Assembly: GCA_040754475.1 (NCBI GenBank) | Contig: JBFMCN010000036.1 | Coordinates: 24,801-88,800, forward strand | Length of the DNA stretch: 64,000 bases | From: Actinomycetota bacterium | GTDB taxonomy: Bacteria; Actinomycetota; UBA4738; HRBIN12 | Reading direction: 5' to 3' | Shown: positions 2,598 through 36,175 of the stretch, one piece after another | How the letters are laid out: each line of letters starts with the position of its first letter | Position numbering within the stretch: the first letter of the stretch is position 1 | The notes under the pieces: model-generated | Seen by the model: the letters and a program-made list of their open reading frames with translations, nothing else | What the model was told of the DNA's origin: nothing | Database searches by the model: none | Translations under genes and position numbers: made by a program

Positions 2598-3871
2598 GGG
2601 TCCTCGTCGTCGGCGGTGGAGGTCGGGAGCACGCTCTGATCTGGAGGCTCTCCCAGAACCCCACCGTCGACCGGCTGTACGCGGCTCCCGGCAACGCCGG
2701 GATCGCCAGCGAAGCCCTGTGCCTGCCGGTCGCGGCCGATGACATCCCCGGCATCGTCGATCTGGTGGAGCGTGAGGGGATCGACCTGACGGTGGTAGGT
2801 CCTGAGGTGCCGCTCGTTGCCGGGCTCGTGGATGAGCTGGAGTCGGTCGGTCGGCGCGTGTTCGGCCCAACGAAGGACGCCGCGCGGATCGAGGGCTCCA
2901 AGGCGTGGACCAAGGAGCTCTGCGAGCGGTACGGGATTCCGGCCGCCGCGTCGCGCACGTTCTCGGACGTCGCATCCGCCGTCGAGTACCTGGATGCCTT
3001 CGATCCGCCGTACGTCGTCAAGGCGGACGGCCTTGCGGCCGGCAAGGGCGTGGTGATCGCCGAGGACGGGCCGGTCGCCATCGGGGCGATCGAGGCGTGT
3101 TTGGTGCACGGGGCGTTCGGCGAGGCGGGCGCGAAGGTCCTGATCGAGGAGCACCTGACGGGCCGCGAGGTCTCGGCGTTCGCACTCACCGATGGGCGCG
3201 ACGTCCTCCCCCTCGTGATGGCCCAGGACTTCAAGCGCGTGGGGGACGGGGACTCGGGACCCAATACCGGCGGCATGGGTTCGTACTCGCCGGTCCCGTT
3301 CGTCGACGAACGGACTGAGGCGCGTATCTGGGACGAGATCGTGTCTCGCGCCGTTCGAGCTATGGAGTCCGAGGGCGTGCGCTATCGCGGCATGCTTTAC
3401 GCGGGGGTCATCCTCACGGACGAAGGACCGAAGCTGCTGGAGTTCAACTGCCGGTTCGGCGACCCAGAGACGCAGGCGATCATCCCGCGCCTTCGCTCGG
3501 ATCTGGGGGAGCTCCTCCTAGCCTGCGTAGAAGGGAACCTCTCCAACTACCGGGCCCACGTCGTTCCGGATGCCTGCGTGACGGTCGTGGTCGCGTCGGG
3601 CGGGTATCCGAGCGGGTACAGGACCGGCTTCGAGATCCGAGGGCTCGAGGATGCGGAAGCCCTCGAGGGCGTAGTCGTCTTTCACGCGGGGACGGCCGAG
3701 CAGCAGGGTAGAGTTGTCACCGCGGGGGGGAGGGTCCTTGGAGTGAGCGCCGTCGGCCGGACGCTGGCCGAGGCCAGGGCCCGCGCCTACGCGGCCTGTT
3801 CCCTGATCGAGTTCGAGGGGATGCACTACAGAAGGGACATCGCGCAACGCGCGGCCGAGGAGGGCGGGTGA
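2594..3871 (+). CDS. purD: phosphoribosylamine--glycine ligase
   Basis: VRVLVVGGGGREHALIWRL N-terminus. GTG start overlaps the purA stop (GTGA). ATP-grasp motifs present. Confidence 0.9.
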   Translation: MRVLVVGGGGREHALIWRLSQNPTVDRLYAAPGNAGIASEALCLPVAADDIPGIVDLVEREGIDLTVVGPEVPLVAGLVDELESVGRRVFGPTKDAARIEGSKAWTKELCERYGIPAAASRTFSDVASAVEYLDAFDPPYVVKADGLAAGKGVVIAEDGPVAIGAIEACLVHGAFGEAGAKVLIEEHLTGREVSAFALTDGRDVLPLVMAQDFKRVGDGDSGPNTGGMGSYSPVPFVDERTEARIWDEIVSRAVRAMESEGVRYRGMLYAGVILTDEGPKLLEFNCRFGDPETQAIIPRLRSDLGELLLACVEGNLSNYRAHVVPDACVTVVVASGGYPSGYRTGFEIRGLEDAEALEGVVVFHAGTAEQQGRVVTAGGRVLGVSAVGRTLAEARARAYAACSLIEFEGMHYRRDIAQRAAEEGG

Positions 3872-6914: not shown

Positions 6915-7618
6915 GTCGCAGACCGCGGATCGGGGTCGTTACGTTTCCCGGGTCGCTCGACGACCGGGACGCGCGCCGAGCCGTCGCCGCCATGGGGGGC
7001 GAAGGGGTGCCCCTTTGGCACTCCCACAGCGATCTGCAGGGCGTCGACGCGGTGATCCTTCCCGGCGGGTTCTCCTACGGCGACTATCTGCGGACCGGCG
7101 CGATCGCTCGCTTCGCGCCGATCATGGAAGAGGTGCGCACGTTCGCCGATGCAGGCGGTCCGGTCGTGGGGATCTGCAACGGCTTCCAGATCCTGTGTGA
7201 GGCGCAGCTCCTCCCGGGCGCACTGATCCGCAACCGGCAGCTGCGCTTCGTGTGCCGGTTCGTGGACGTCCGCGTCGAGACCTCGCTCTCTCCACTTACC
7301 GAGGGGCTGGTGCCCGGCGAGGTGCTCACCGTTCCGGTGAAGCACGGCGAAGGGCAATTCGTCGCCGGCGCCGAGGAGCTGGATCGGATCGAGGGTGAGG
7401 GACTCGTCGTGTTCCGGTACTGCGCCCCCGACGGCTCGTTCGACGACGAGCACAACGTCAACGGCAGCCTCGACTCGATCGCCGGCGTCCGGAACGAGGT
7501 GGGAAACGTCGTTGGTCTGATGCCTCACCCGGAGCACGCTGTCGATCCCGATGTCGGGCCGACCGGCGGGCAGCCTATGCTGGCTTCTTTGCTGTCGTAC
7601 GCCCTCGCCCGGGTGTAG
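6911..7618 (+). CDS. purQ: phosphoribosylformylglycinamidine synthase I (glutaminase subunit)
   Basis: IGVVTFPGS...GICNGFQ class I glutamine amidotransferase motifs. GTGA overlap with purS. Confidence 0.9.
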   Translation: MSRRPRIGVVTFPGSLDDRDARRAVAAMGGEGVPLWHSHSDLQGVDAVILPGGFSYGDYLRTGAIARFAPIMEEVRTFADAGGPVVGICNGFQILCEAQLLPGALIRNRQLRFVCRFVDVRVETSLSPLTEGLVPGEVLTVPVKHGEGQFVAGAEELDRIEGEGLVVFRYCAPDGSFDDEHNVNGSLDSIAGVRNEVGNVVGLMPHPEHAVDPDVGPTGGQPMLASLLSYALARV

Positions 7619-7623
7619 CGACG

Positions 7624-9849
7624 ATGCCTTCCGATCAGCCCCTTCACCGCGCGCTCGGCCTCACGGACGAGGAGCTCGAGGCGATCCGGACGACACTCGG
7701 ACGAGAGCCGAACCCGAACGAGCTGGCGATGTACGGGGTGATGTGGTCCGAGCATTGCTCCTACAAGAGCTCGAAGATCTACCTCCGCACCCTGCCGACC
7801 GAGGGCCGGCACGTCCTCGTCGGGCCCGGGCAGGACGCCGGCGCCATCGACATAGGCGACGGCCTGGCGGTCGTGTTCAAGATGGAGTCGCATTCGCACC
7901 CAAGCGCCATCGAGCCGTATCAGGGCGCCGCCACGGGTGTGGGGGGCATCGTCCGCGACATCGTCGCGATGGGGGCGCGTCCGATCGCGTTGCTGGATCC
8001 GTTGATGTTCGGACCGCTCACAGAGGAGCGGAACCGATGGCTCTTCGAGGGCGTTGTCGCCGGTATCGGCGGATATGGGAACTGCATCGGGGTTCCGACC
8101 GTCGGCGGCGAGGTGCACTTCGCCGAGCCTCACTCGACCAACCCTGTTATCAACGTGATGTGCGTCGGGGTAGCCTCCGCCGACGATCTGGTGACGGCCG
8201 CCCGGGAGGTACACGAGGGGTCGCTCATGGTCCTGATCGGCGCGGCGACCGGCCGCGACGGGATCGGCGGCGTGTCCGTGCTGGCCTCACGGACGATCGA
8301 AGAGGATGCGGCCGAGACGCGCCCGAGTGTGCAGATCGGCGATCCCTTCGCCGAGAAGCTGCTCATCGAGGCATGTCTGGAGCTGGTGCGACGAGATCTG
8401 CTGGAGGGCCTGCAGGATCTCGGCGGCGCCGGACTCACTTGTGCTGCAAGCGAATCGACGGCTCGTTCCAGGATGGGCTCGGAGATCGATCTGGATGTGG
8501 TTCCGCTTCGGGCACCGGATCTGGAGATCTGGGAGATCCTCACGAGCGAGTCGCAGGAGAGGATGCTGGCGATCGTTAGCCCCGACCGGCTGGCGGACGT
8601 CCGCGAGGTCTGCACGAAGTGGGGACTGGCCTCCTCGGTGATCGGGAAGCTGGTGGCCGGCGGGGGCCTTGCCGTCCGGAAGGGCGGTGAGGTCGTCGCC
8701 CAGGTACCGGCAAGGTCACTCGCAGACGAGGGGCCGATCTACGAACGGCCGGCGCGGCAACCCCGGGGGTTGGACGAGCTCGAGCAGGACGATCCCACGT
8801 TCTCGACGGTGAAGGCGTCGCCGCTGGATTCGTTCCTCACGGTCCTGGCCTCGCCCAACGTCGCCTCGAAACGGTGGGTGTGGGAGCAGTACGACTTCCT
8901 CGTGCAGGGTGGGACGGTGGCCGGTCCCGGAGCGGACGCGGCGATAGTCCGGATCGAGGGGGCGCTGAAGGCTCTCGCGCTCTCGACCGACGGCAAGGGG
9001 CGCTTCGGGCATCTGAACCCGTACCTGGGGGCTGCACACGCGGTCGCGGAGGCGGCGCGAAACGTCGCGGTGATGGGCGCGACACCGCTTGCGATCACGA
9101 ACTGCATGAACTTCGGCAACCCTGAGCGGCCCGAGGTCATGTGGCAGTTCGCCGAATCGGTTCGTGGGATGGCCGATGCCTGCAGTGCGCTGGAGACGCC
9201 TGTGACCGGCGGTAACGTCAGCTTCTACAACGAGTCCGGCGACTCGTCGATCTGGCCGACGCCGGTGATCGGCATGCTTGGGCTGATCGAGGACCACCGG
9301 CTGCTGGTGCGTCCCGGCTTCACCGGTCCGGGTCTCGTCGTCTACCTGCTCGGCGAGACGTTTCCCGAGCTGGGGGGCTCCGAGTTCGCAGAGGTGGTGC
9401 TCGGCAAGGTGGCGGGACGGGCGCCGGCGCTCGACTTCGACAGTGAGAGGGCGCTCCACCGGGTGCTCATCGAAGGCTCACGCAAGGATCTCCTCGCGTC
9501 CGCGCACGATTGCTCCGAGGGCGGGCTCGCCGTCGCCCTTGCGGAGTCGGCGATCACCGGCAACGTGGGCTTTGCAGTCGCGCTGCCGGGTGACGTCCCC
9601 TGGTACGTGACGCTGTTCGCCGAGTCGGCTTCGCGAGCGGTGGTCTCGACCACTCTCGAGGCCGCTGCGGCTCTCGAGGCCCTCGCCGAGGAGCATCACG
9701 TTCCCGTCTTCCCCCTCGGCGAGACGGGAGGGCCACGGATGGTCTTCGACTCGCTCTTCGAGGTGACTGTCGAGGAGGCCAGGGCTGTCTATGAGGGGAC
9801 GATTCCGAAGCTCCTTGCCGGCGAAGGTCGCTCGGCCCCCGGATCGTAG
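7624..9849 (+). CDS. purL: phosphoribosylformylglycinamidine synthase II
   Basis: 741 aa. MWSEHCSYKSS, ESHSHPS and AIR-synthase-related repeats are typical of small PurL. Confidence 0.95.
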   Translation: MPSDQPLHRALGLTDEELEAIRTTLGREPNPNELAMYGVMWSEHCSYKSSKIYLRTLPTEGRHVLVGPGQDAGAIDIGDGLAVVFKMESHSHPSAIEPYQGAATGVGGIVRDIVAMGARPIALLDPLMFGPLTEERNRWLFEGVVAGIGGYGNCIGVPTVGGEVHFAEPHSTNPVINVMCVGVASADDLVTAAREVHEGSLMVLIGAATGRDGIGGVSVLASRTIEEDAAETRPSVQIGDPFAEKLLIEACLELVRRDLLEGLQDLGGAGLTCAASESTARSRMGSEIDLDVVPLRAPDLEIWEILTSESQERMLAIVSPDRLADVREVCTKWGLASSVIGKLVAGGGLAVRKGGEVVAQVPARSLADEGPIYERPARQPRGLDELEQDDPTFSTVKASPLDSFLTVLASPNVASKRWVWEQYDFLVQGGTVAGPGADAAIVRIEGALKALALSTDGKGRFGHLNPYLGAAHAVAEAARNVAVMGATPLAITNCMNFGNPERPEVMWQFAESVRGMADACSALETPVTGGNVSFYNESGDSSIWPTPVIGMLGLIEDHRLLVRPGFTGPGLVVYLLGETFPELGGSEFAEVVLGKVAGRAPALDFDSERALHRVLIEGSRKDLLASAHDCSEGGLAVALAESAITGNVGFAVALPGDVPWYVTLFAESASRAVVSTTLEAAAALEALAEEHHVPVFPLGETGGPRMVFDSLFEVTVEEARAVYEGTIPKLLAGEGRSAPGS

Positions 9850-14062: not shown

Positions 14063-14200
14063 TTCCGAACCTCATCGTTTCGAAGTCTCTCGCGCATGTC
14101 CTTCTCACCGGGATCGAGTCTGCGAGAGCATATACACCGCGCCCGGTATCCGGACGACGGCCAAGGAACCGTCGGGCCAGGGTACCGCCGATGCGCAGAG

Positions 14201-14273
14201 TGGCCAGGGGCAGAATCGAACTGCCGACACCGCGGTTTTCAGCCGCGTGCTCTGCCAACTGAGCTACCTGGCC
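14201..14273 (-). tRNA. tRNA-Phe (anticodon GAA)
   Basis: Reverse complement GGCCAGGTAGCTCAGTTGGCAGAGCACGCGGCTGAAAACCGCGGTGTCGGCAGTTCGATTCTGCCCCTGGCCA folds as a cloverleaf with anticodon loop CTGAAAA. Confidence 0.9.
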
Positions 14274-14303
14274 GTAACCGGTCCTCGAGGACCGGGCGTC
14301 CAG

Positions 14304-14379
14304 CGCGGGTGACGGGCTTCGATCCCGCGATCTCCGCCTTGACAGGGCGGTGAGGACGGCCAGGCTCCTCTACACCCGC
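14304..14379 (-). tRNA. tRNA-Asp (anticodon GTC)
   Basis: Reverse complement GCGGGTGTAGAGGAGCCTGGCCGTCCTCACCGCCCTGTCAAGGCGGAGATCGCGGGATCGAAGCCCGTCACCCGCG. 7-bp acceptor stem, D, anticodon (CTGTCAA) and T arms all pair. The T-loop is unusual (ATCGAAG). Confidence 0.65.
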
Positions 14380-14395
14380 GTGCTATTCGGTTGTG

Positions 14396-14468
14396 TGCCC
14401 CCAACGGGATTCGAACCCGTGTCGCCGCCTTGAAAGGGCGAAATCCTGGGCCGCTAGACGATGGGGGC
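14396..14468 (-). tRNA. tRNA-Glu (anticodon TTC)
   Basis: Reverse complement GCCCCCATCGTCTAGCGGCCCAGGATTTCGCCCTTTCAAGGCGGCGACACGGGTTCGAATCCCGTTGGGGGCA is close to the canonical bacterial tRNA-Glu. Confidence 0.85.
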
Positions 14469-14826
14469 CCGTGCGTCCCCGGGACGCCCGTTGCGCCCGA
14501 CCTGGGGGCAGCCGAAGAAGTATAGCCTGCCCTGCTGCGGCCTCTGGAGCGGCGGGTTCAACACGTGCGTGGTGGTCGTTCACCATCCGGGTGGGCGCTC
14601 TACGGGAGGTGCCGATCGGCGCCGATGAGAGGTGCATGCGGGCGCTGCTCGAGTTCCTTGGGATCCTCGAGCCTGACCGAGCGCGCCGTGAGCCGGTCAC
14701 GCTGCCCTCGTGGGCTTTCTGGACGGCCCCACTCCTCGTCCTTGCCCTGGTGGTGGCTTCGACCCTCGTGCTCGTGGTCATTCGGGCCTTCTTCTGAACC
14801 GCGGCTCCGCGGGAAGGCGGCTCAGC

Positions 14827-15153
14827 TCAGTCCATCCGCATCTGATCGCCTGGCAGGAGATCGGCATCCTCGGGTGCCTCGAGCACGTGGAGTGCACGCA
14901 GACGTGGGAGCAGGAGCCTCCCGGGGGACACATGCTCGACTCGAACCACGCGAAGGTGTCGGTCGAGGAAGACCGCGGTGATCTCGAACCGCATGCCGAA
15001 CGTGTGGACCGACCGCGCGCGCTCGAACAGCATCGCACGCCGTTCCTGCAGTTGAGTGCGTCCCAGCAGACCTCGCGCCCGCTCGAACCGGCTCGTCGGA
15101 ACATCGACCTGCCAGGAGGAGCCTCGCGGGTCGGTCAACAGAATCGTTCGCAA
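14827..15153 (-). CDS. DUF192 domain-containing protein (108 aa)
   Basis: GLLGR...MLFER..SVHTFGMRFEITAVFLD...RVV matches the DUF192 (COG1430) pattern. No signal peptide. Confidence 0.65.
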   Translation of the reverse strand: MRTILLTDPRGSSWQVDVPTSRFERARGLLGRTQLQERRAMLFERARSVHTFGMRFEITAVFLDRHLRVVRVEHVSPGRLLLPRLRALHVLEAPEDADLLPGDQMRMD

Positions 15154-15192
15154 GAGGGGCCACCGTAGCGGATGGGTCGGACACGCCTTTCC

Positions 15193-15266
15193 GGAGTGGC
15201 TTGTGGAGTGGCGTGCGGAGTGGCTTGTGGAGTGGCTTGTGAGGTCTCAGTGTGAGGTCTCAGTAC
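15193..15266. repeat. tandem repeat block: 12-mer GGAGTGGCTTGT x4 (one variant GGAGTGGCGTGC) followed by 13-mer GAGGTCTCAGTGT x2
   Basis: Read directly in the sequence. It ends 3 nt from the 3' end of tRNA-Lys. Confidence 0.85.
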
Positions 15267-15269
15267 CCG

Positions 15270-15344
15270 TGGGGCGGGCAGGATTCGAACCCGCGACACG
15301 AGGGTTAAAAGCCCCCTGCTCTGACCCGGCTGAGCTACCGCCCC
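15270..15344 (-). tRNA. tRNA-Lys (anticodon TTT)
   Basis: Reverse complement GGGGCGGTAGCTCAGCCGGGTCAGAGCAGGGGGCTTTTAACCCTCGTGTCGCGGGTTCGAATCCTGCCCGCCCCA. Anticodon loop CTTTTAA. Confidence 0.9.
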
Positions 15345-20471: not shown

Positions 20472-23120
20472 GTGATCATGTCGGAGACGCTCAGGCGAGC
20501 GCTGGCCGAGGCGCCCGATCCGGAACTTGCGAGCTTGGCGGTATCTCGAGTGGGTGAGGACCCACGTGCGTACGAGGTTCTCATGCGCGAGGGCGTGCTG
20601 CCGCTGGCCGTCCAACTGCTCGGGTTCTCGACCGCGGCTGCGGACTTCCTCGTAGCACACCCCGATGAAGCGGGGGCCCTCGTGGACGTGCGCCCGCGCC
20701 TGCTGCCACAGCTCGCCGCCGAGCTCCGTGGCGACGTGGATCGGCTGGGCTTCGTTGCCGGCCTCCGCCTGTTCCGTCGGCGGGCGATGCTTCGGGTCGC
20801 CGCGCGCGATCTCGCCGGGGCGCGTTTCGAGGAGATCGTCGAGGAGATCAGCGATGTCGCGGAGGTCTGCCTGGATGAAGCGTGCCGGAGCGTGGCGGCC
20901 CTTGGGCTTGCGGTGGTGGGGCTGGGGAAGCTGGGCGGTAGGGAGCTCAACTACGCATCGGACGTTGACGTCGTCTTCCTCCACGAGGGGAGTGGGGGCA
21001 CGCGACAGGAGGAGGCTGGGCACGCGGTCGAGGAGATGATCAGGCTCCTGTCCGAGCCGACGTCCGAGGGCATCGCGCTCCGCGTCGATACCGCCCTTCG
21101 GCCGGGTGGCTACGGGTCCCCGCTCGCTCGGTCGCTCGATGCGATGCGTGAGTACTACGCGAGCCAGGCCGCGACATGGGAGCGGCAGGCACTCATCAAG
21201 GCGAGGCCAATCGCCGGCGACCGCTTCCTCGGCGAGGCGTTCGTCGAGATGGTCGCGCCGTTCGTCTACCCGGCGGAGCTCGCACCCGAGGCGATCAACG
21301 AAGTGCGCCGGGTGAAGGTAAGGCTGGAGGAGTACGTGCGCGCTCGCGGCAAAGCCGATATCGAGGTCAAACGCGGGTGGGGAGGGATCCGCGACGTCGA
21401 GTTCGCGGTGCAGCTCCTTCAGATCGTCCACGGCCGGCGAGACGAGCGCCTGCGTCAGCCGAACACTCTCCGCGCCCTCGCGACGCTTGCCGAGGAGGGG
21501 TATGTCGCCGAGTCCGATGCCGAGGCGCTGGCTGGTGCATATCGATTTCTGAGGACCCTCGAGCACCGGTTGCAGATGGTTCGGGACCTCCAGACCCATG
21601 AGCTACCTGCCGACAGCGCGTCTCGCCGCCGTCTCGCGCGCTCGCTGGGGCTGGAGGGGCCGGAGGCTCTGCAGGCCGAGTATGAGCGCAAGACGACTCT
21701 CGTTCGGGGGCTGCACGAACGCCTCTTCTATCGACCTCTCCTGGAGGCCTTCGCAGGTCCAAGGTTGCCGCGACCCGGCGTCGAGCGGGAGGCGACCGAG
21801 GAGCTGCTCGCGGGGCTCGGGTTTCGTCGGCCCTCGGCCGCCTACGAGGTCCTGGACAGGCTGGTCGACCCATCGACGCGCCTCGGGAAAGTGCTTGCCC
21901 ACGTGTTCCCGGTTATGGCACCGGCGCTTGCCCTGGCGTCGAATCCCGATGCGGCGCTCGTACGGCTCGAGCGCGTTACGGAGGCGCTCGAGGACGGTCG
22001 AGACGTCGCAGATGCCCTCGCGACCGATCCGGGAGCGGCTCGGCGACTGGCCAACACCGTGTCGGCGAGCTCATTCGCCACCGATCTCCTCGTGTCGCGG
22101 CCGGCTCGAGTGCTCTCGCTGGAGGAGCGCGCCGAAGACGTGGACGCCGCAGGAGCGCTCGTGTCGGTCGTCGGCCGGTGGGCGGCCCGCGAGCTTGATC
22201 CGAGGGATAGCGGCCGGGCGCTCGCGGCCGTGGCCGATCGCGTCGTGCGCGAGGCAGTCGAGGCCGCCGAGGCCGATCTCTCGTTCGCGGTGATCGGCCT
22301 GGGCAAGCTCGGCGCGGAGGAGCTGAACTTCGCATCGGACCTCGACGTGGTGTTCGTCTACGAAGGTGAGGGACCCGACGATTTCCGACGGGCCGCCGAC
22401 GTTGGCGAACGCGTGCTGGCCGGGATCCGCGACGCAGGGTGGGAGCCCGACGCTCGCCTACGCCCCGAGGGACGGGCGGGACCCCTCGCACGCTCGTTCA
22501 CGGCGTTCGTCGAATACTGGCAGCGGTACGCGCAGACCTGGGAGTTTCAGACGCTGCTCCGCGCGCGGTTCGTCGCGGGGGATGAGGCGCTCGGGCAACG
22601 CTTCTGCTCGTTCGCTGAGCGCTTCGCATACCCGGAGCGGCTGTCGATCGATCAGGTGGCGGAGATTCGCCGCATGCGCGAGCGTATCGAGCGCGAACGC
22701 GTCGGGCCGGTCGACGCCGGAACGTTCCACTTCAAGCTCGGATACGGTTCGCTTGCCGATGTGCAGTTCGCAGTGGAGCTATCACTGATGCGGCACGGTA
22801 TCGAGTTCCCAGAGGTCCGAGCAAGGAGCACGCTGGACGCGGTCGAGAGGCTGGCCCGAACGCGGCTCATGGAGGACAGCGTGGCCATGGCACTCGCCGA
22901 GGCGTTCGTGTTCCTCTCCGATGTCAAGAACGCGCTCGAAGTCGATCGGCGCGTGCACGCGGAGTCTGTTCCGCCCTCACCGGAGGAGCAGACGGCGCTC
23001 GCGCGGAGGCTCGGCTACGAGGAGTACCCGCGGCAGAGCTTCCTCGAGGACTACCGGAGGATCGCGCGGCGCGCACGTCGCGCGATGGAGCGCGTCTTCG
23101 CCGAGATCGACGAGCCCTGA
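20472..23120 (+). CDS. glnE: bifunctional glutamine synthetase adenylyltransferase/adenylyl-removing enzyme
   Basis: 882 aa with two nucleotidyltransferase modules (GKLGGRELNYASDVDVVF and GKLGAEELNFASDLDVVF). Confidence 0.9.
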   Translation: MIMSETLRRALAEAPDPELASLAVSRVGEDPRAYEVLMREGVLPLAVQLLGFSTAAADFLVAHPDEAGALVDVRPRLLPQLAAELRGDVDRLGFVAGLRLFRRRAMLRVAARDLAGARFEEIVEEISDVAEVCLDEACRSVAALGLAVVGLGKLGGRELNYASDVDVVFLHEGSGGTRQEEAGHAVEEMIRLLSEPTSEGIALRVDTALRPGGYGSPLARSLDAMREYYASQAATWERQALIKARPIAGDRFLGEAFVEMVAPFVYPAELAPEAINEVRRVKVRLEEYVRARGKADIEVKRGWGGIRDVEFAVQLLQIVHGRRDERLRQPNTLRALATLAEEGYVAESDAEALAGAYRFLRTLEHRLQMVRDLQTHELPADSASRRRLARSLGLEGPEALQAEYERKTTLVRGLHERLFYRPLLEAFAGPRLPRPGVEREATEELLAGLGFRRPSAAYEVLDRLVDPSTRLGKVLAHVFPVMAPALALASNPDAALVRLERVTEALEDGRDVADALATDPGAARRLANTVSASSFATDLLVSRPARVLSLEERAEDVDAAGALVSVVGRWAARELDPRDSGRALAAVADRVVREAVEAAEADLSFAVIGLGKLGAEELNFASDLDVVFVYEGEGPDDFRRAADVGERVLAGIRDAGWEPDARLRPEGRAGPLARSFTAFVEYWQRYAQTWEFQTLLRARFVAGDEALGQRFCSFAERFAYPERLSIDQVAEIRRMRERIERERVGPVDAGTFHFKLGYGSLADVQFAVELSLMRHGIEFPEVRARSTLDAVERLARTRLMEDSVAMALAEAFVFLSDVKNALEVDRRVHAESVPPSPEEQTALARRLGYEEYPRQSFLEDYRRIARRARRAMERVFAEIDEP

Positions 23121-32313: not shown

Positions 32314-33480
32314 ATGACCGACACCATCGCGCCTCACGGCGGGGCTCTCGTCAACCTGCTCGCACCCGGCGCGGAGGCGGAGCAGCTCACCCAGCAGGCC
32401 CGGCGCTACCCGAAGACCAAGGTCAGCGAGCGCGAGCTCTCCGATCTCGAGATGCTCACCGTGGGCGCTCTCTCGCCGCTCACAGGGTTCGTCGGTGAGA
32501 AGGACTACCGCTCGATCCTCGAAACGATGCATCTGACGAACGGCCTGCCGTGGACGATCCCGGTCACGCTTTCCCTCGACCAGGAGGAGGTCAAAGGGAT
32601 CGCGAGAGCCGAGGCCGTTGCGCTCATGACTGCCCAGAGCGACCGGTCGATCGCGATTCTCGAGATAGCCGAGGTCTTCAAGAGGGACCGTCCGAAGGAG
32701 GCGCTCGCGGTCTTCGGCACCGAGGATCTCGAGCACCCGGGCGTAAGGGCCCTCCACGACGCTGGGGACTACTGCCTGGCCGGGAGGGTGCGAGCGATCC
32801 GACTGCCCGAGCACCGCACGTTCACGAAGTACCGCCTTACGCCGGCCGAGACCCGAGCGGAGTTCGCGAGGCGGGGATGGAGGACGGTCGTGGGCTTCCA
32901 GACCCGCAACCCCATCCATCGGGCTCACGAGTACATCCAGAAGTGCGCGCTGGAGATCGTGGACGGTTTGCTCGTGCACCCACTCGTAGGTGCGACGAAG
33001 GGGGACGATGTGCCGGCAGAGGTCCGGATGCGGTGCTACGAAGCCCTGTTCGAGGGGTACTACCCGAAGGATCGTGCGATGGTCACCGTGTTCCCGGCGG
33101 CGATGCGCTACGCGGGGCCGAAGGAGGCCATCTGGCACGCGATCGCCCGCAAGAACTACGGTTGCACGCACCTCATCGTCGGTCGCGATCACGCGGGCGT
33201 CGGCACGTACTACGGCACTTATGACGCGCAGAAGATCTTCGATGAGTTCGAGCCGGGGGAGCTCGGCATCACCCCGCTCTGCTTCGAGCACTCCTTCTAC
33301 TGCAAACGGTGCGAGGGGATGGGCTCGCCGAAGACCTGCCCGCATGAGGACGAGGATCGCGTGATCCTTTCGGGTACGAAGGTGCGCGAGATGCTGCGCG
33401 GCGGTGAGCGTCCGCCTGTCGAGTTCAGCCGTCCTGAGGTGGCCGACATCCTCATCGAGGCGATGCGGGCGAAGGCATGA
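32314..33480 (+). CDS. sat: sulfate adenylyltransferase (single-chain ATP sulfurylase)
   Basis: GFQTRNPIHRAHE and HLIVGRDHAGVG motifs. 388 aa. Confidence 0.9.
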   Translation: MTDTIAPHGGALVNLLAPGAEAEQLTQQARRYPKTKVSERELSDLEMLTVGALSPLTGFVGEKDYRSILETMHLTNGLPWTIPVTLSLDQEEVKGIARAEAVALMTAQSDRSIAILEIAEVFKRDRPKEALAVFGTEDLEHPGVRALHDAGDYCLAGRVRAIRLPEHRTFTKYRLTPAETRAEFARRGWRTVVGFQTRNPIHRAHEYIQKCALEIVDGLLVHPLVGATKGDDVPAEVRMRCYEALFEGYYPKDRAMVTVFPAAMRYAGPKEAIWHAIARKNYGCTHLIVGRDHAGVGTYYGTYDAQKIFDEFEPGELGITPLCFEHSFYCKRCEGMGSPKTCPHEDEDRVILSGTKVREMLRGGERPPVEFSRPEVADILIEAMRAKA

Positions 33481-33624
33481 CAGAAGGATTTGCCCCGTTC
33501 ACGAGCCCTTTGGTAGCCTCCCGACGGCCAGAGCGGCGCCGCCATCCGTCCCAAGGAGGCCTCGACGACCGCTCCTAGGAGGCAGATCCGCACCATCCTC
33601 GCCCTCGTCCTCGCGGCGGGGGTC

Positions 33625-34575
33625 ATGAGCGCGACCCCCACCCTGGCCGATACGAAGTCCGACCTGGAGAGCGCGAAGCGGGAGCTGGCCCGCCTCCAAG
33701 CCAGTCTGGACCAGGCGACCGCCGAGTGGCAGGCTGCCTACTCCTTGCTTGTGCAGACGAGGGCGAAGATCGCGTCCACGCGCGAGGAGATCGACGCGCT
33801 TCAGCGGAACATCGCGAGGATCCAGGAGCGGCTGCAAGAGCGGGCCGTGATCGCCTTCGAGAACGGGCCGGCCAGCACGATTGATCTCCTGCTCTCCTCT
33901 GAGACGTTCGCCGAGTTCTCCGACCGGATGGAATTCCTGGGGAACGTGGCGCAGAGCGACTCGGACCTCGTCCTCGAGCGCGAGGTGTCGGAGGAGCAGC
34001 TCAAGCGTAAGGAGGAGAACCTCAAGTCCCTCGCGATCGATCGGGCGGCCACCACGCAGCGGCTCGAGTCGGTCAAGAGCTCGATCTCGGCGGACACGGC
34101 CGCGATGAAGCGAGAGGTCGACGATCTGGAGGCGAAGTACAAACAGGAGCAGCGGCTCCTTCAGGTTCTCGGGCAGACTGTGAACATGGGCGCGTCTATC
34201 GCGCGGTGTCCCGTGGCGGGTCCGAACTCGTTCGTCGACTCGTTCGGCTGGCCGCGCTCGGGCGGCCGCACCCACCAAGGGATCGACCTGATAGCCGCAT
34301 ACGGGACCCCAGTTGTCTCAGTGCAGAACGGGACCGCCGTCCGCAACTACAACTCGCTGGGCGGAAACGCGGTCATCGTCTACGGTCCCGGGGGAGACTG
34401 GACCTACTACGCGCACCTGTCCAGCTACGGCGCCTCCGGCAGCGTGAGCGTCGGAACGGTGATCGGCTACGTCGGGGCGACCGGCAACGCGGGCATCAAC
34501 CACCTGCATTTCGAGTACCACCCTGGTGGCGGGGCGGCTGTCAATCCCTACCAGGCGCTCCTGTCCGTCTGCTGA
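33625..34575 (+). CDS. M23 family metallopeptidase with N-terminal coiled-coil (EnvC-like). True start probably upstream, see findings.
   Basis: C-terminal M23 motifs (HQGIDL, GNAVIV, GNAGINHLHFE). Long coiled-coil N-terminal region. In-frame upstream sequence encodes a signal peptide. Confidence 0.8.
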   Translation: MSATPTLADTKSDLESAKRELARLQASLDQATAEWQAAYSLLVQTRAKIASTREEIDALQRNIARIQERLQERAVIAFENGPASTIDLLLSSETFAEFSDRMEFLGNVAQSDSDLVLEREVSEEQLKRKEENLKSLAIDRAATTQRLESVKSSISADTAAMKREVDDLEAKYKQEQRLLQVLGQTVNMGASIARCPVAGPNSFVDSFGWPRSGGRTHQGIDLIAAYGTPVVSVQNGTAVRNYNSLGGNAVIVYGPGGDWTYYAHLSSYGASGSVSVGTVIGYVGATGNAGINHLHFEYHPGGGAAVNPYQALLSVC

Positions 34576-34637: not shown

Positions 34638-35165
34638 GTGGCCGAGCCTCGTGGCAACCGTCGGATCGATCGCATTCTGAGGCCGGACTTCACGGCGGGC
34701 CTGGCGGGCCTTTCCCTCGAGGAGCTTCGTCGTCGCCGGGACGAGTGCCTCGTGGAGCGCGAGTCCCTTTCGCTTCTTCGCCGGCTGGTTCAAGGTCGCG
34801 CGGAGATCCTCAGGGCGGAGGTCGAGCGCCGCGGGCACGGCGACTCGGGTTCGCTGGTCGACCGGCTCTCCACGATCCTCGCCGCGGGCGGTCACGAGCC
34901 TTCGCGCGGGGAGGCTGTGCGGGTGGGTGTTCCTCAAGAGGAGCTGGCGCTCGCCCGGCGGCGAGTGGAGCGTCTCGTGGCCGACGCCGGCCTCTCCGAT
35001 CCTGGCGCTCTCGACGACGACCGGCTTTCGAAGGCGGTCGGCCTTCTCTCCGAGGAAGAGAGGAAGGTGTCGGAAGATCGGGCGGCCGTCATCTCGGTCC
35101 TGGACGAGATTCAGAGGGAGCTCAAGCGCAGGTACAAGGAGGATCCCTCCCGGGTCCTGTCCTGA
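34638..35165 (+). CDS. hypothetical coiled-coil protein (175 aa), weakly RsiG-like
   Basis: GTG start with SD AAGGAG. Highly charged helical sequence. Two partial E-x3-S-x2-R-x3-Q-x3-D-like motifs. Confidence 0.5.
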   Translation: MAEPRGNRRIDRILRPDFTAGLAGLSLEELRRRRDECLVERESLSLLRRLVQGRAEILRAEVERRGHGDSGSLVDRLSTILAAGGHEPSRGEAVRVGVPQEELALARRRVERLVADAGLSDPGALDDDRLSKAVGLLSEEERKVSEDRAAVISVLDEIQRELKRRYKEDPSRVLS

Positions 35166-35332: not shown

Positions 35333-36175
35333 GTGCACGGTTGCGCGGCCCGTATGAAGAGGCAAGCCCACCGCTCCGAGCAACGGCACGGGGATCCGTC
35401 GGATCCGGAGCTTCCGGCCGTCCACCAGCAGCTCATCGTGTTCGCGCGTGAGCTCGGCCAGCTCTACCGCCTTGAGCGTTCGCGGAGCGCAGAGCTCGAG
35501 CGGGTCCTCGACAGCGTCCAGGACATGTACCTGGCGACCATGAGGAGCCTCGCCCAGGTCATCGAGGCGAAGGATCGGACGACGCGGGGGCATCTCGACC
35601 GAACCCAGGCTCTGGGCGTCGCCCTGGCAAGACGGATCGACCCCGCCCTCGCGGAGGGACCGGAGCTAGGCTACGGCTTCTTCCTCCACGACATCGGGAA
35701 GGTGTGTATCCCCGAACACATCCTCTGCAAGGTGGGACCTTTGACCGGCGAGGAATGGGAGGTCGTCCGCACGCACCCTGTCGTGGGCGCCAGGATCGTC
35801 GCCCCGATCCGGTTCCTAGGCGACGCGGCCCTTGTGATCCGCCACCACCATGAGTGGTTCGACGGCGAAGGCTATCCCGACGGACTGAGAGGCACCGCCA
35901 TACCGCTCGCGGCGCGGGTGTTCGCGGTCGCCGACTCCTACGACGCGATGACGAACGACCGTCCCTACCGCAACGCGCTGACCCGCGATCGCGCTGTCGA
36001 GGAGCTGCGGCAGGGCGCGGGCACCCAGTTCGACCCGGACGTCGTCGATGTGTTCGTCGACATGGTCGAGGAGGAGCCCTCGCCGATCTGGAACGGGGCG
36101 GGACCCTACCGCTTCGAGGAGGGCACCCCGGACCTTGCCGCGATCGGACAGCCGTCCGTTGCCGTCGGGCTCTGA
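35333..36175 (+). CDS. HD-GYP domain c-di-GMP phosphodiesterase
   Basis: HD (FLHDIGK) and HHHEWFDGEGYPDGL motifs. Confidence 0.8.
   Translation: MHGCAARMKRQAHRSEQRHGDPSDPELPAVHQQLIVFARELGQLYRLERSRSAELERVLDSVQDMYLATMRSLAQVIEAKDRTTRGHLDRTQALGVALARRIDPALAEGPELGYGFFLHDIGKVCIPEHILCKVGPLTGEEWEVVRTHPVVGARIVAPIRFLGDAALVIRHHHEWFDGEGYPDGLRGTAIPLAARVFAVADSYDAMTNDRPYRNALTRDRAVEELRQGAGTQFDPDVVDVFVDMVEEEPSPIWNGAGPYRFEEGTPDLAAIGQPSVAVGL

Follow-up and report, generated by a model that had tools for sequence, protein, structure and literature searches.

A conserved ACG codon as the probable translation start of an M23 peptidase gene in uncultured Actinomycetota

The gene described here encodes an M23-family peptidase and lies on the plus strand of a 64,000-nt stretch of DNA from an Actinomycetota bacterium (GenBank assembly GCA_040754475.1, contig JBFMCN010000036.1, positions 24,801–88,800 of the forward strand), which we refer to as the window. 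In the NCBI annotation, the gene begins at an ATG that falls inside the coding region of a predicted signal peptide. Here, we compare this gene with 80 orthologous loci (designated L plus a number), taking one genome per GTDB species, and propose that translation probably starts at an ACG codon at position 33565, positioned by the Shine–Dalgarno (SD) sequence AAGGAGG at 33553–33559, and not at the annotated ATG. Fifty-nine of the loci share a uniform leader and are termed clade 1. All member genomes are metagenome-assembled genomes (MAGs) of uncultured Actinomycetota.

Architecture of the M23 locus

The features of the locus, numbered from the first nucleotide of the window, are as follows.

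33490..33495, plus strand: −35-like hexamer TTGCCC, assigned from conservation and geometry
33511..33519, plus strand: extended −10-like element, TGG plus TAGCCT (TGGTAGCCT), assigned from conservation
33526..33564, plus strand: predicted 5′ untranslated leader of about 40 nt, from an inferred transcription start at about 33526
33553..33559, plus strand: SD sequence AAGGAGG (SD1), a GGAGG-type motif standing before the ACG in almost all loci
33565..33567, plus strand: ACG, the proposed initiation codon, from conservation and SD spacing
33565..33574, plus strand: conserved 10-mer ACGACCGCTC, the start codon and positions +4 to +10, with the lowest entropy of the region
33565..33648, plus strand: signal-peptide coding region of 28 codons, (M)TAPRRQIRT / ILALVLAAGVM / SATPTLA, from hydropathy and homologue alignment
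33577..33582, plus strand: second AGGAGG (SD2), encoding the Arg-Arg of the n-region and followed by ATC 33586–33588; the full AGGAGG and the ATC are unconserved
33625..33627, plus strand: annotated ATG start, inside the signal peptide (NCBI; P0001, 316 aa)
33649..34575, plus strand: mature protein with PcsB-like coiled coil and Peptidase_M23 domain, and stop codon, from Pfam matches and homologue alignment

The translation extended upstream of the annotated start contains two Pfam domains, CC_PcsB (PF24568; residues 92–165, about 33790–34011; 37.3 bits against a gathering cut-off of 27) and Peptidase_M23 (PF01551; residues 252–344, about 34270–34548; 67.5 bits against a cut-off of 28.7), and the Pfam E values for the two domains of this extended protein are 1.2e-18 and 2.6e-09. 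A homologue search with the extended translation returned thousands of relatives, among them entries with the database names ‘EnvC family’ or ‘MepM/NlpD’. We aligned 34 sequences (alignment A1), in which H253-x3-D257 and H329-x-H331 (HQGID and HLHFE) are invariant; we take these H-x3-D and H-x-H motifs to be the zinc ligands of Peptidase M23. By homology, the gene product would be a secreted PcsB/EnvC-like coiled-coil M23 peptidoglycan endopeptidase of the LytM zinc type.

A signal peptide ahead of any canonical start

ATG 33625 (Met37 of the extended protein) is preceded by 36 open in-frame codons (33517–33624), back to a TAG at 33514–33516. These codons encode PPDGQSGAAIRPKEASTTAPRRQIRTILALVLAAGV, followed by M-SATPTLA-DTK, and a scan of three forward frames finds no ATG, GTG or TTG trinucleotide between 33517 and 33624; both the open frame and the missing canonical start, as given in the original prediction, were confirmed on the sequence. 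For 36 random codons at 67.8% GC, the probability of lacking a canonical start is about 0.23. The start-less gap alone is statistically unremarkable, and it is the encoded content that sets it above chance.

That content is a signal peptide, whose end reads …RRQIRTILALVLAAGVMSATPTLA↓DTK (the arrow marks the cleavage site). An 11-residue core, ILALVLAAGVM, across which the mean hydropathy in 9-residue windows reaches up to 2.8, is preceded by Arg and followed by T-L-A. Counted from the ACG, the n-region (M)TAPRRQIRT carries three Arg and the c-region is SATPTLA, with T and A at −3 and −1, respectively, predicting cleavage between Ala (33646–33648) and Asp (33649–33651). Throughout the 34 homologues of A1, the Ala at −1 is invariant at the mature start ADTK, and the family consensus is PALA↓DTK. 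The homologue N-terminal consensus reads ..TxAxRxxxRxxLALALxAGxLxxxPALADTK, of which ..TTA(P/R)RR..LALAL.AG....PALA↓DTK is conserved. Sec-type (signal peptidase I) substrates are marked by positive charge in the n-region, a hydrophobic core within 7–15 residues and small residues at −3 and −1, all of which the window peptide shows. Set against the twin-arginine translocation (Tat) motif S/T-R-R-x-F-L-K, the window reads P-R-R-Q-I-R-T, and A-R-R-T-A-L-R-T-F-L is found in many orthologues; the R-R pair is frequent, but agreement at the remaining motif positions is poor, and the pair is missing from several orthologues (for example TTARHMIV, TAAPKST). By default, we treat the signal as Sec. Hydropathy, arginines, T-L-A and homologue alignment thus bear out the earlier proposal that a Sec signal peptide spans the annotated Met.

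If the annotation were right, the protein would begin at ATG 33625 and have either no signal peptide or another export route. This ATG is the first canonical start and the one chosen by NCBI. However, the Met is L, V, A or F in most homologues, it sits 8 residues before a conserved AxA-type cleavage site and no GGAGG stands ahead of it, whereas the 27 codons upstream keep their frame, hydrophobicity and arginines across about 60 species; moreover, a peptidoglycan hydrolase must get to the cell wall. We therefore regard the annotated start as extremely unlikely. The comparison with orthologous M23 genes that the original prediction called for, meant to reveal whether they start at the equivalent of Met 33625 and have no signal peptide, gave the opposite: the Met is not conserved and the signal peptide is.

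Among near-full-length matches, the called starts of the family are scattered over about 70 codons, giving lengths of 310–382 aa; some homologue N-termini lie inside the hydrophobic core and others 40–70 residues farther upstream. We attribute this scatter to the lack of a canonical start at the presumed true site.

A conserved ACG codon behind an SD sequence

At one aligned position, all 59 clade-1 loci carry an in-frame ACG, the sole invariant triplet in their alignment (A2). In 33/59 loci, the window included, the stretch from the closest in-frame stop to the hydrophobic core holds no ATG, GTG or TTG, which favours the non-canonical initiation codon put forward in the original prediction. 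Canonical codons of the remaining clade-1 loci are scattered from −1 to −271 codons with no positional conservation. Across the 59 loci, no other aligned position has a consistent near-cognate codon, barring AGG at codon 5 (17 nt from the SD) and the AAG or AGG internal to the SD. An in-frame stop lies only 3–5 codons before the ACG in six loci, for example L017, L023, L029 (TGA GGG GAG GGC CCC ACG) and L075.

The upstream ATG or GTG codons of some orthologues were considered as real starts and rejected: they are scattered, a large share of them fall inside the SD (GAGGAGGTG, ATGAGGGGAGG) or ahead of the promoter, and their frame shifts with spacer length.

The ACG is placed where an SD sequence would be expected to direct initiation. 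The window reads AAGGAGG (33553–33559), CCTCG and then ACG (33565–33567), a spacing of 5 nt, and in clade-1 loci a GGAGG-type motif precedes the ACG by 3–8 nt (mode 5), followed by ACG ACC GCT C.C AGG. As a reference, we took the GGAGG sites of the window that are followed by a canonical start and an open reading frame (ORF) of at least 80 codons (n=31); 5 nt was the commonest spacing (11/31) and 3 nt occurred in 2/31. Protein conservation apparently extending upstream of the ACG (‘KEA’ in the window; ‘REE’, ‘GEG’, ‘KGG’) arises because the SD is read as codons.

The reading frame gives a further line of evidence. In a frame-blind search, the motif ACGACCGCT was in frame with the cleavage site in 55/59 matches; of the four exceptions, two are spurious matches and two are truly out of frame (L046, L049). 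The length from ACG to cleavage site varies, at 28–42 codons, and the intervals upstream of the ACG (3–8 nt from the SD, 33–58 nt from the −10-like box) vary without triplet periodicity. This pattern suggests that sequence from the ACG onward is translated and sequence before it is not. Codon usage was also compared at seven further Thr columns conserved in these genes, which are 55% ACG and 42% ACC, whereas the proposed start is always ACG; the mixed codons at these Thr columns indicate that synonymous sites are saturated at such evolutionary depth.

The original prediction had placed the start elsewhere, at ATC 33586 behind AGGAGG 33577–33582. Both are present as described, with the in-frame ATC (33586–33588) 3 nt after the AGGAGG, and initiation there in the source genome, alone or besides the ACG, would give the peptide (M)RTILALVLAAGVMSATPTLA, which retains one Arg before the hydrophobic core. 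In Escherichia coli reporters, AUC is a roughly 5–8-fold stronger start than ACG (PMC3643588), and orthologue L076 has AGGAGG, 6 nt and ATC as its only plausible start. The conservation that marks the ACG is missing here, however: relatives 79% identical to the window replace the ATC (GTC in L083, GTT in L081), an ATC occurs at the aligned position in a handful of the 59 loci and in at most five at any nearby position, SD2 is degenerate in most loci (AGGAC, AAGAC), and the full AGGAGG is missing from L001 and L081. The 3-nt spacing is rare in the window (2/31, against 11/31 at 5 nt), and the need for Arg-Arg in the n-region accounts better for the AGG codons of SD2. The specific ATC start of the original prediction thus finds no support in conservation; it may contribute in the source genome, and as an account of initiation there we consider it doubtful.

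Nor does an error account well for the missing start. A fault of assembly or sequencing, or inactivation by a recent mutation in the source MAG, could for instance have changed a TTG to the TCG at 33562, and the nearest relatives, L081–L083, do have TTG at codon −1 where the window has TCG. Such a TTG would stand just 2 nt after the SD, however, and codon −1 is highly variable, being near-cognate or canonical in 5/59 loci (ACG twice, GTG twice, AGG once). A hidden indel, as the original prediction had envisaged, is refuted: no leader frame contains a canonical start, so a single indel cannot create one, and the arrangement recurs in dozens of independent assemblies, with 32 further species-level genomes also lacking a canonical start. 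We consider an error or recent mutation very unlikely, and return to the ACG as the preferred start.

A genome-wide relaxation of start selection was also considered. Scanning the window for GGAGG followed by a long ORF with no canonical start returned this ACG and the noise of GC-rich spurious ORFs, and the idea was rejected; within the window, the ACG-start phenomenon looks specific to the M23 gene.

Predicted promoter and leader

Upstream of the SD, the clade shares a promoter-like arrangement. A TANNNT hexamer, the actinobacterial −10 consensus, is found in 57/58 loci (TAGCCT in 37), usually with TGG or TGA just ahead, and (G)TTGCCC lies about 18 nt upstream of this −10-like box in nearly all of the 57 loci having it. 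TTGCCC and the extended −10 would together form a housekeeping-type promoter. A generic sigma-70 scan missed the box because TAGCCT matches TATAAT at 3/6 positions. The TAG at 33514–33516, the ‘stop’ that had bounded the ORF of the original prediction, belongs to this −10-like box. Its distance to the ACG, 33–58 nt, is not a multiple of 3, and the interval therefore behaves as non-coding.

A transcript from about 33526 would hold no canonical start before 33625. Given the conserved position of the promoter, ATGs called far upstream would lie outside its transcript; examples are the proteins P0002 and P0003, whose called ATGs adjoin or overlap the sulfurylase gene upstream. The window does not have a leaderless-mRNA arrangement, as 45 nt separate the end of the −10-like box from the ACG and no ATG or GTG lies between them.

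The leader carries a conserved GCGGCGGCCGAGACCG block, and if anything the region is open. Nothing in Rfam matched 33350–33800 at E<=10, and at the gathering score the window and six whole orthologous loci together gave only four tRNAs (window 14201–15344). RNAalifold returned a consensus of 0 pairs for 58 leaders, and no leader was more stably folded than its shuffled versions (z = +0.22 for the window, −1.3 to +1.9 for six leaders). One helix, pairing GAGCGG (33530–33535) with CCGCTC (33569–33574), appears in the minimum free energy fold of the window. We rejected it: its 77% of paired cells was matched by 191/500 shuffles and its covariation is at background.

Variation of the start codon across lineages

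On a neighbour-joining tree of the mature proteins with a midpoint root, ACG occurs on both sides of the root. Other near-cognate codons take its place in sister lineages. CTG occupies the SD-spaced site, 5–8 nt from the SD, in 11 loci, namely clade 2 (CAGGAGG CAGACNNN CTG AGG) and L066, L072, L073 and L078. In L076, the M23 gene directly follows the sulfurylase stop, with no separate promoter or leader, and reads TGA GCTCCTCG AGGAGG CGTTCC ATC CGG CCA CGA; ahead of the hydrophobic core, no plausible start exists other than this ATC, which is spaced 6 nt from the AGGAGG, and L076 is likely an ATC-initiated orthologue. Canonical starts, ATG or GTG, are seen in a few loci (L055, L062, L080, L045, L067). 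Each of ACG, CUG and AUC is a single substitution away from AUG, and their exchange at a single site suggests that a weak start was kept while the codon changed.

L070, nested in the CTG clade, is alone among the orthologues in reading TGGTAGCCT, 6 nt and then ATG CAG GTC ATC CCC (about 2950–3010). Its ATG stands one codon after the CTG position of sister species. This looks like a leaderless version of the gene, and would independently mark the position of the N-terminus.

Several loci show local departures at or near the site. The closest relatives of the window, at 79% identity, read GCC TTG ACG (L081:1585–1600, L083:1580–1595) where the window reads GCC TCG ACG; the TTG stands just 2 nt after the SD, and gene callers passed over it for ATGs adjoining or overlapping the sulfurylase gene. 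The subclade of L064, L067 and L068 has an in-frame ATG four codons upstream (CCC ATG GGG GGC AGC ACG), and the ACG has become AGG in L067, which suggests that the canonical ATG took over as the start in this subclade. The related nanopore-derived MAGs of L046 (2900–3075) and L049 (2930–3100) read CCCC CTG ACC GCT CGA AGG AT.., with an extra base near GGATC(C)GCGC that puts the motif one base out of frame; the TGA in C-TGA-CC closes the M23 frame, and in L049 no in-frame near-cognate codon precedes an ATG late in the hydrophobic core. Basecalling that errs systematically at a GATC site could explain the offset, as could a genuine +1 shift or decay of the signal peptide.

The conserved 10-mer

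Conservation does not end with the ACG. Positions +1 to +10 vary by 0–0.7 bit each, less than the SD itself. Codon 2 is ACC in 48/58 loci and ACG in 0/58, codon 3 is GCT in 48/58 loci against 3% of Ala codons in the same genes, and codon 5 is AGG in 34/58 against about 7% of Arg codons. ACCGCTC may provide a favourable context for a poor start codon, or may be the site of an unknown factor. A stronger form of this idea, which we hold to be improbable, is that the invariant ACGACCGCUC is a dedicated initiation element licensing efficient or regulated initiation at ACG, through ribosome contact, a trans-acting factor or C-to-U conversion of ACG to AUG. Such an element, if real, would represent a mode of starting translation undescribed in bacteria.

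The same conservation could be read differently, with ACGACCGCTC serving mainly as a cis-regulatory RNA or DNA site (for a protein, small RNA or rRNA) or as a site of ACG-to-AUG editing, and initiation depending on a factor or on a mechanism invisible in sequence. Such a site would explain why conservation reaches well past the ACG, through the rare codons GCT and AGG, and would accommodate the partial copy GACGACCGC found just upstream of the SD in many loci and the GCGGCGGCCGAGACCG block of the leader. However, the leader shows no consensus structure, no helix covariation, no excess folding energy and no Rfam match, and the motif is not enriched elsewhere in the window. Its variable distance to the SD (3–8 nt) is the behaviour of a start codon, and a cis-site would still need a start codon, for which ACG is the only conserved candidate. 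To our knowledge, C-to-U editing of start codons is unreported in bacteria. A mainly regulatory site or an editing site thus seems unlikely to us, and ACG initiation remains the reading that we prefer.

A regulon sharing the 10-mer was considered and rejected; the window contains 14 matches to ACGACCGCTC where 16.3 are expected, which is no enrichment. In L003, L008, L010, L015, L018, L021, L030 and others, a second (G)ACGACCGC copy lies directly upstream of the SD, −30 to −10 from the ACG, in the arrangement GACGACCGCG-AGGAGG-CCCGG-ACGACCGCTCCCAGGAG. The repeat spacing, about 19–23 nt, varies with the spacer between SD and ACG. The window holds merely a degenerate copy of this repeat, at about 33540–33552.

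Genomic context

The order of the neighbourhood, PAPS reductase (minus strand), ATP sulfurylase, M23, an RsiG-like protein and an HD_5 protein, is the same in close relatives, and the sulfurylase–M23–RsiG–HD_5 order is conserved in L081–L083. Directly downstream of the M23 gene lies the RsiG-like protein (PF22802, E = 6.5e-17; window 34638–35165, plus strand), followed by the HD_5 (HD-domain) protein (window 35333–36175, plus strand). RsiG is an anti-sigma factor in Streptomyces that binds cyclic di-GMP, and HD_5 is an HD-GYP-type domain. A link between cyclic di-GMP signalling and the M23 hydrolase is possible.

Elsewhere in the window, ARAGORN and Rfam alike find four tRNAs at 14200–15344 (Phe, Asp, Glu and Lys, minus strand). 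ARAGORN also calls a 96-nt tRNA-Asp (GTC) at 22605–22700 (plus strand), which stays below the gathering score of the Rfam tRNA model; the call is probably spurious, or else marks a tRNA-like sequence of an unusual kind.

Weighing the ACG start

Several points weigh against an ACG start. Alignment A2 was anchored on the in-frame ACG, making its invariance partly one of construction; the frame-blind search and the Thr control lessen this concern, but do not remove it. In a few loci, a canonical codon stands beside the ACG and is possibly used there (TTG at −1 in L081–L083, GTG at −1 in L035 and L040, ATG at −4 in L064 and L068), and in L046 and L049 the motif has CTG in place of ACG and does not share the frame of the gene. 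The conservation of ACCGCTC goes beyond the role of a start codon, and the 10-mer could bind something else. The case also rests on comparative inference, and all of the genomes are MAGs of uncultured organisms. In E. coli, ACG was the weakest of the near-cognate codons tested, about 5–10-fold below AUU, AUC and CUG (PMC3643588), and the non-canonical starts annotated in 79 bacterial genome or plasmid records are CTG, ATT, ATC and ATA, not ACG (Hecht et al., 10.1101/063800). In the literature searched, we found no report of a natural, conserved bacterial ACG start; the name ‘M23 RNA motif’ had no literature match either.

Work in other bacteria gives a measure of how such a start might perform. 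With chloramphenicol acetyltransferase (CAT) reporters in E. coli, ACG gave 48–78 units against 7,300–7,800 for AUG (about 0.6–1%), AUA, AUU and AUC gave 238–631 units and CUG gave 327–906 (PMC3643588). GFP initiated at ACG carries N-terminal Met and some Thr (10.1101/063800). In Staphylococcus aureus, conserved AUU and AUA starts with an extended SD limit and tune expression (PMC13009471).

Proposed mechanism and implications

We envisage the following sequence of events. The promoter (33490–33495 and 33511–33519) would give an mRNA whose leader, about 40 nt long, is unstructured; on this mRNA, AAGGAGG (33553–33559), judging from spacing and conservation, would set the P-site of the 30S subunit 5 nt downstream, on the ACG. 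The initiator tRNA would pair with the ACG through a mismatch at the middle position, making initiation inefficient, at perhaps 1% of AUG activity if E. coli reporters can be extrapolated. IF3 discriminates against near-cognate start codons, and infC autoregulates through its AUU start; on the strength of its codon class and of this general proofreading by IF3, the ACG start would be expected to be sensitive to IF3. The product, by homology, would be a 336-residue preprotein; cleavage of its 28-residue Sec signal behind T-L-A would free the mature hydrolase on the outer side of the membrane. The weak start and strong SD would have been kept by selection across the lineage and the codon swapped for CUG or AUC in sister lineages, the likely purpose being to limit the amount of a potentially lytic enzyme and perhaps to match it to growth state.

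Genetic code table 11 does not list ACG among its initiation codons, and the ACG start, if correct, would mean that a bacterial lineage as a whole uses it naturally. The swapping among ACG, CUG and AUC argues that weak initiation itself is selected for this cell-division hydrolase, which would extend the principle of infC, pcnB and ccpN to cell-wall remodelling. An ACG start would also explain the systematic mis-annotation of this protein family. In public databases, some calls of the family appear truncated, without the signal peptide, and others extended over the promoter into the upstream gene; with such starts, predictions of localization and secretome for the M23 protein of these Actinomycetota would therefore be wrong. 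Start finders that admit conserved near-cognate codons with a strong SD would correct such cases.

Comparison with known systems

Start codons written as ACG in the genome are known from plant chloroplasts, where C-to-U RNA editing converts them to AUG. The M23 gene resembles these in having a conserved genomic ACG at the initiation position, and we know of no start-editing system of the chloroplast type in bacteria.

Closer in kind are the E. coli genes infC (encoding IF3) and pcnB, in which a conserved near-cognate start, AUU in both, limits translation (PMC3643588, PMC13009471). The M23 gene differs from them in using ACG, a second-position mismatch, and in encoding a secreted hydrolase; its sensitivity to IF3 would follow from codon class. 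The ccpN (AUA) and cvfC1 (AUU) genes of S. aureus and Bacillus share with the M23 gene a weak start and a strong, properly spaced SD, conserved across species, an arrangement that lowers yield (PMC13009471). In contrast to the M23 ACG (CUG or AUC in sister lineages), proposed from comparative genomics, the starts of ccpN and cvfC1 were mapped by retapamulin ribosome profiling and reporters.

At the protein level, the predicted product is built like PcsB of Streptococcus, EnvC of E. coli and other coiled-coil hydrolases or activators of cell division, with a long coiled coil (CC_PcsB) between the signal peptide and a peptidoglycan hydrolase domain at the C-terminus. EnvC carries a degenerate LytM domain. 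PcsB has a CHAP domain, whereas the M23 protein has intact H-x3-D and H-x-H motifs.

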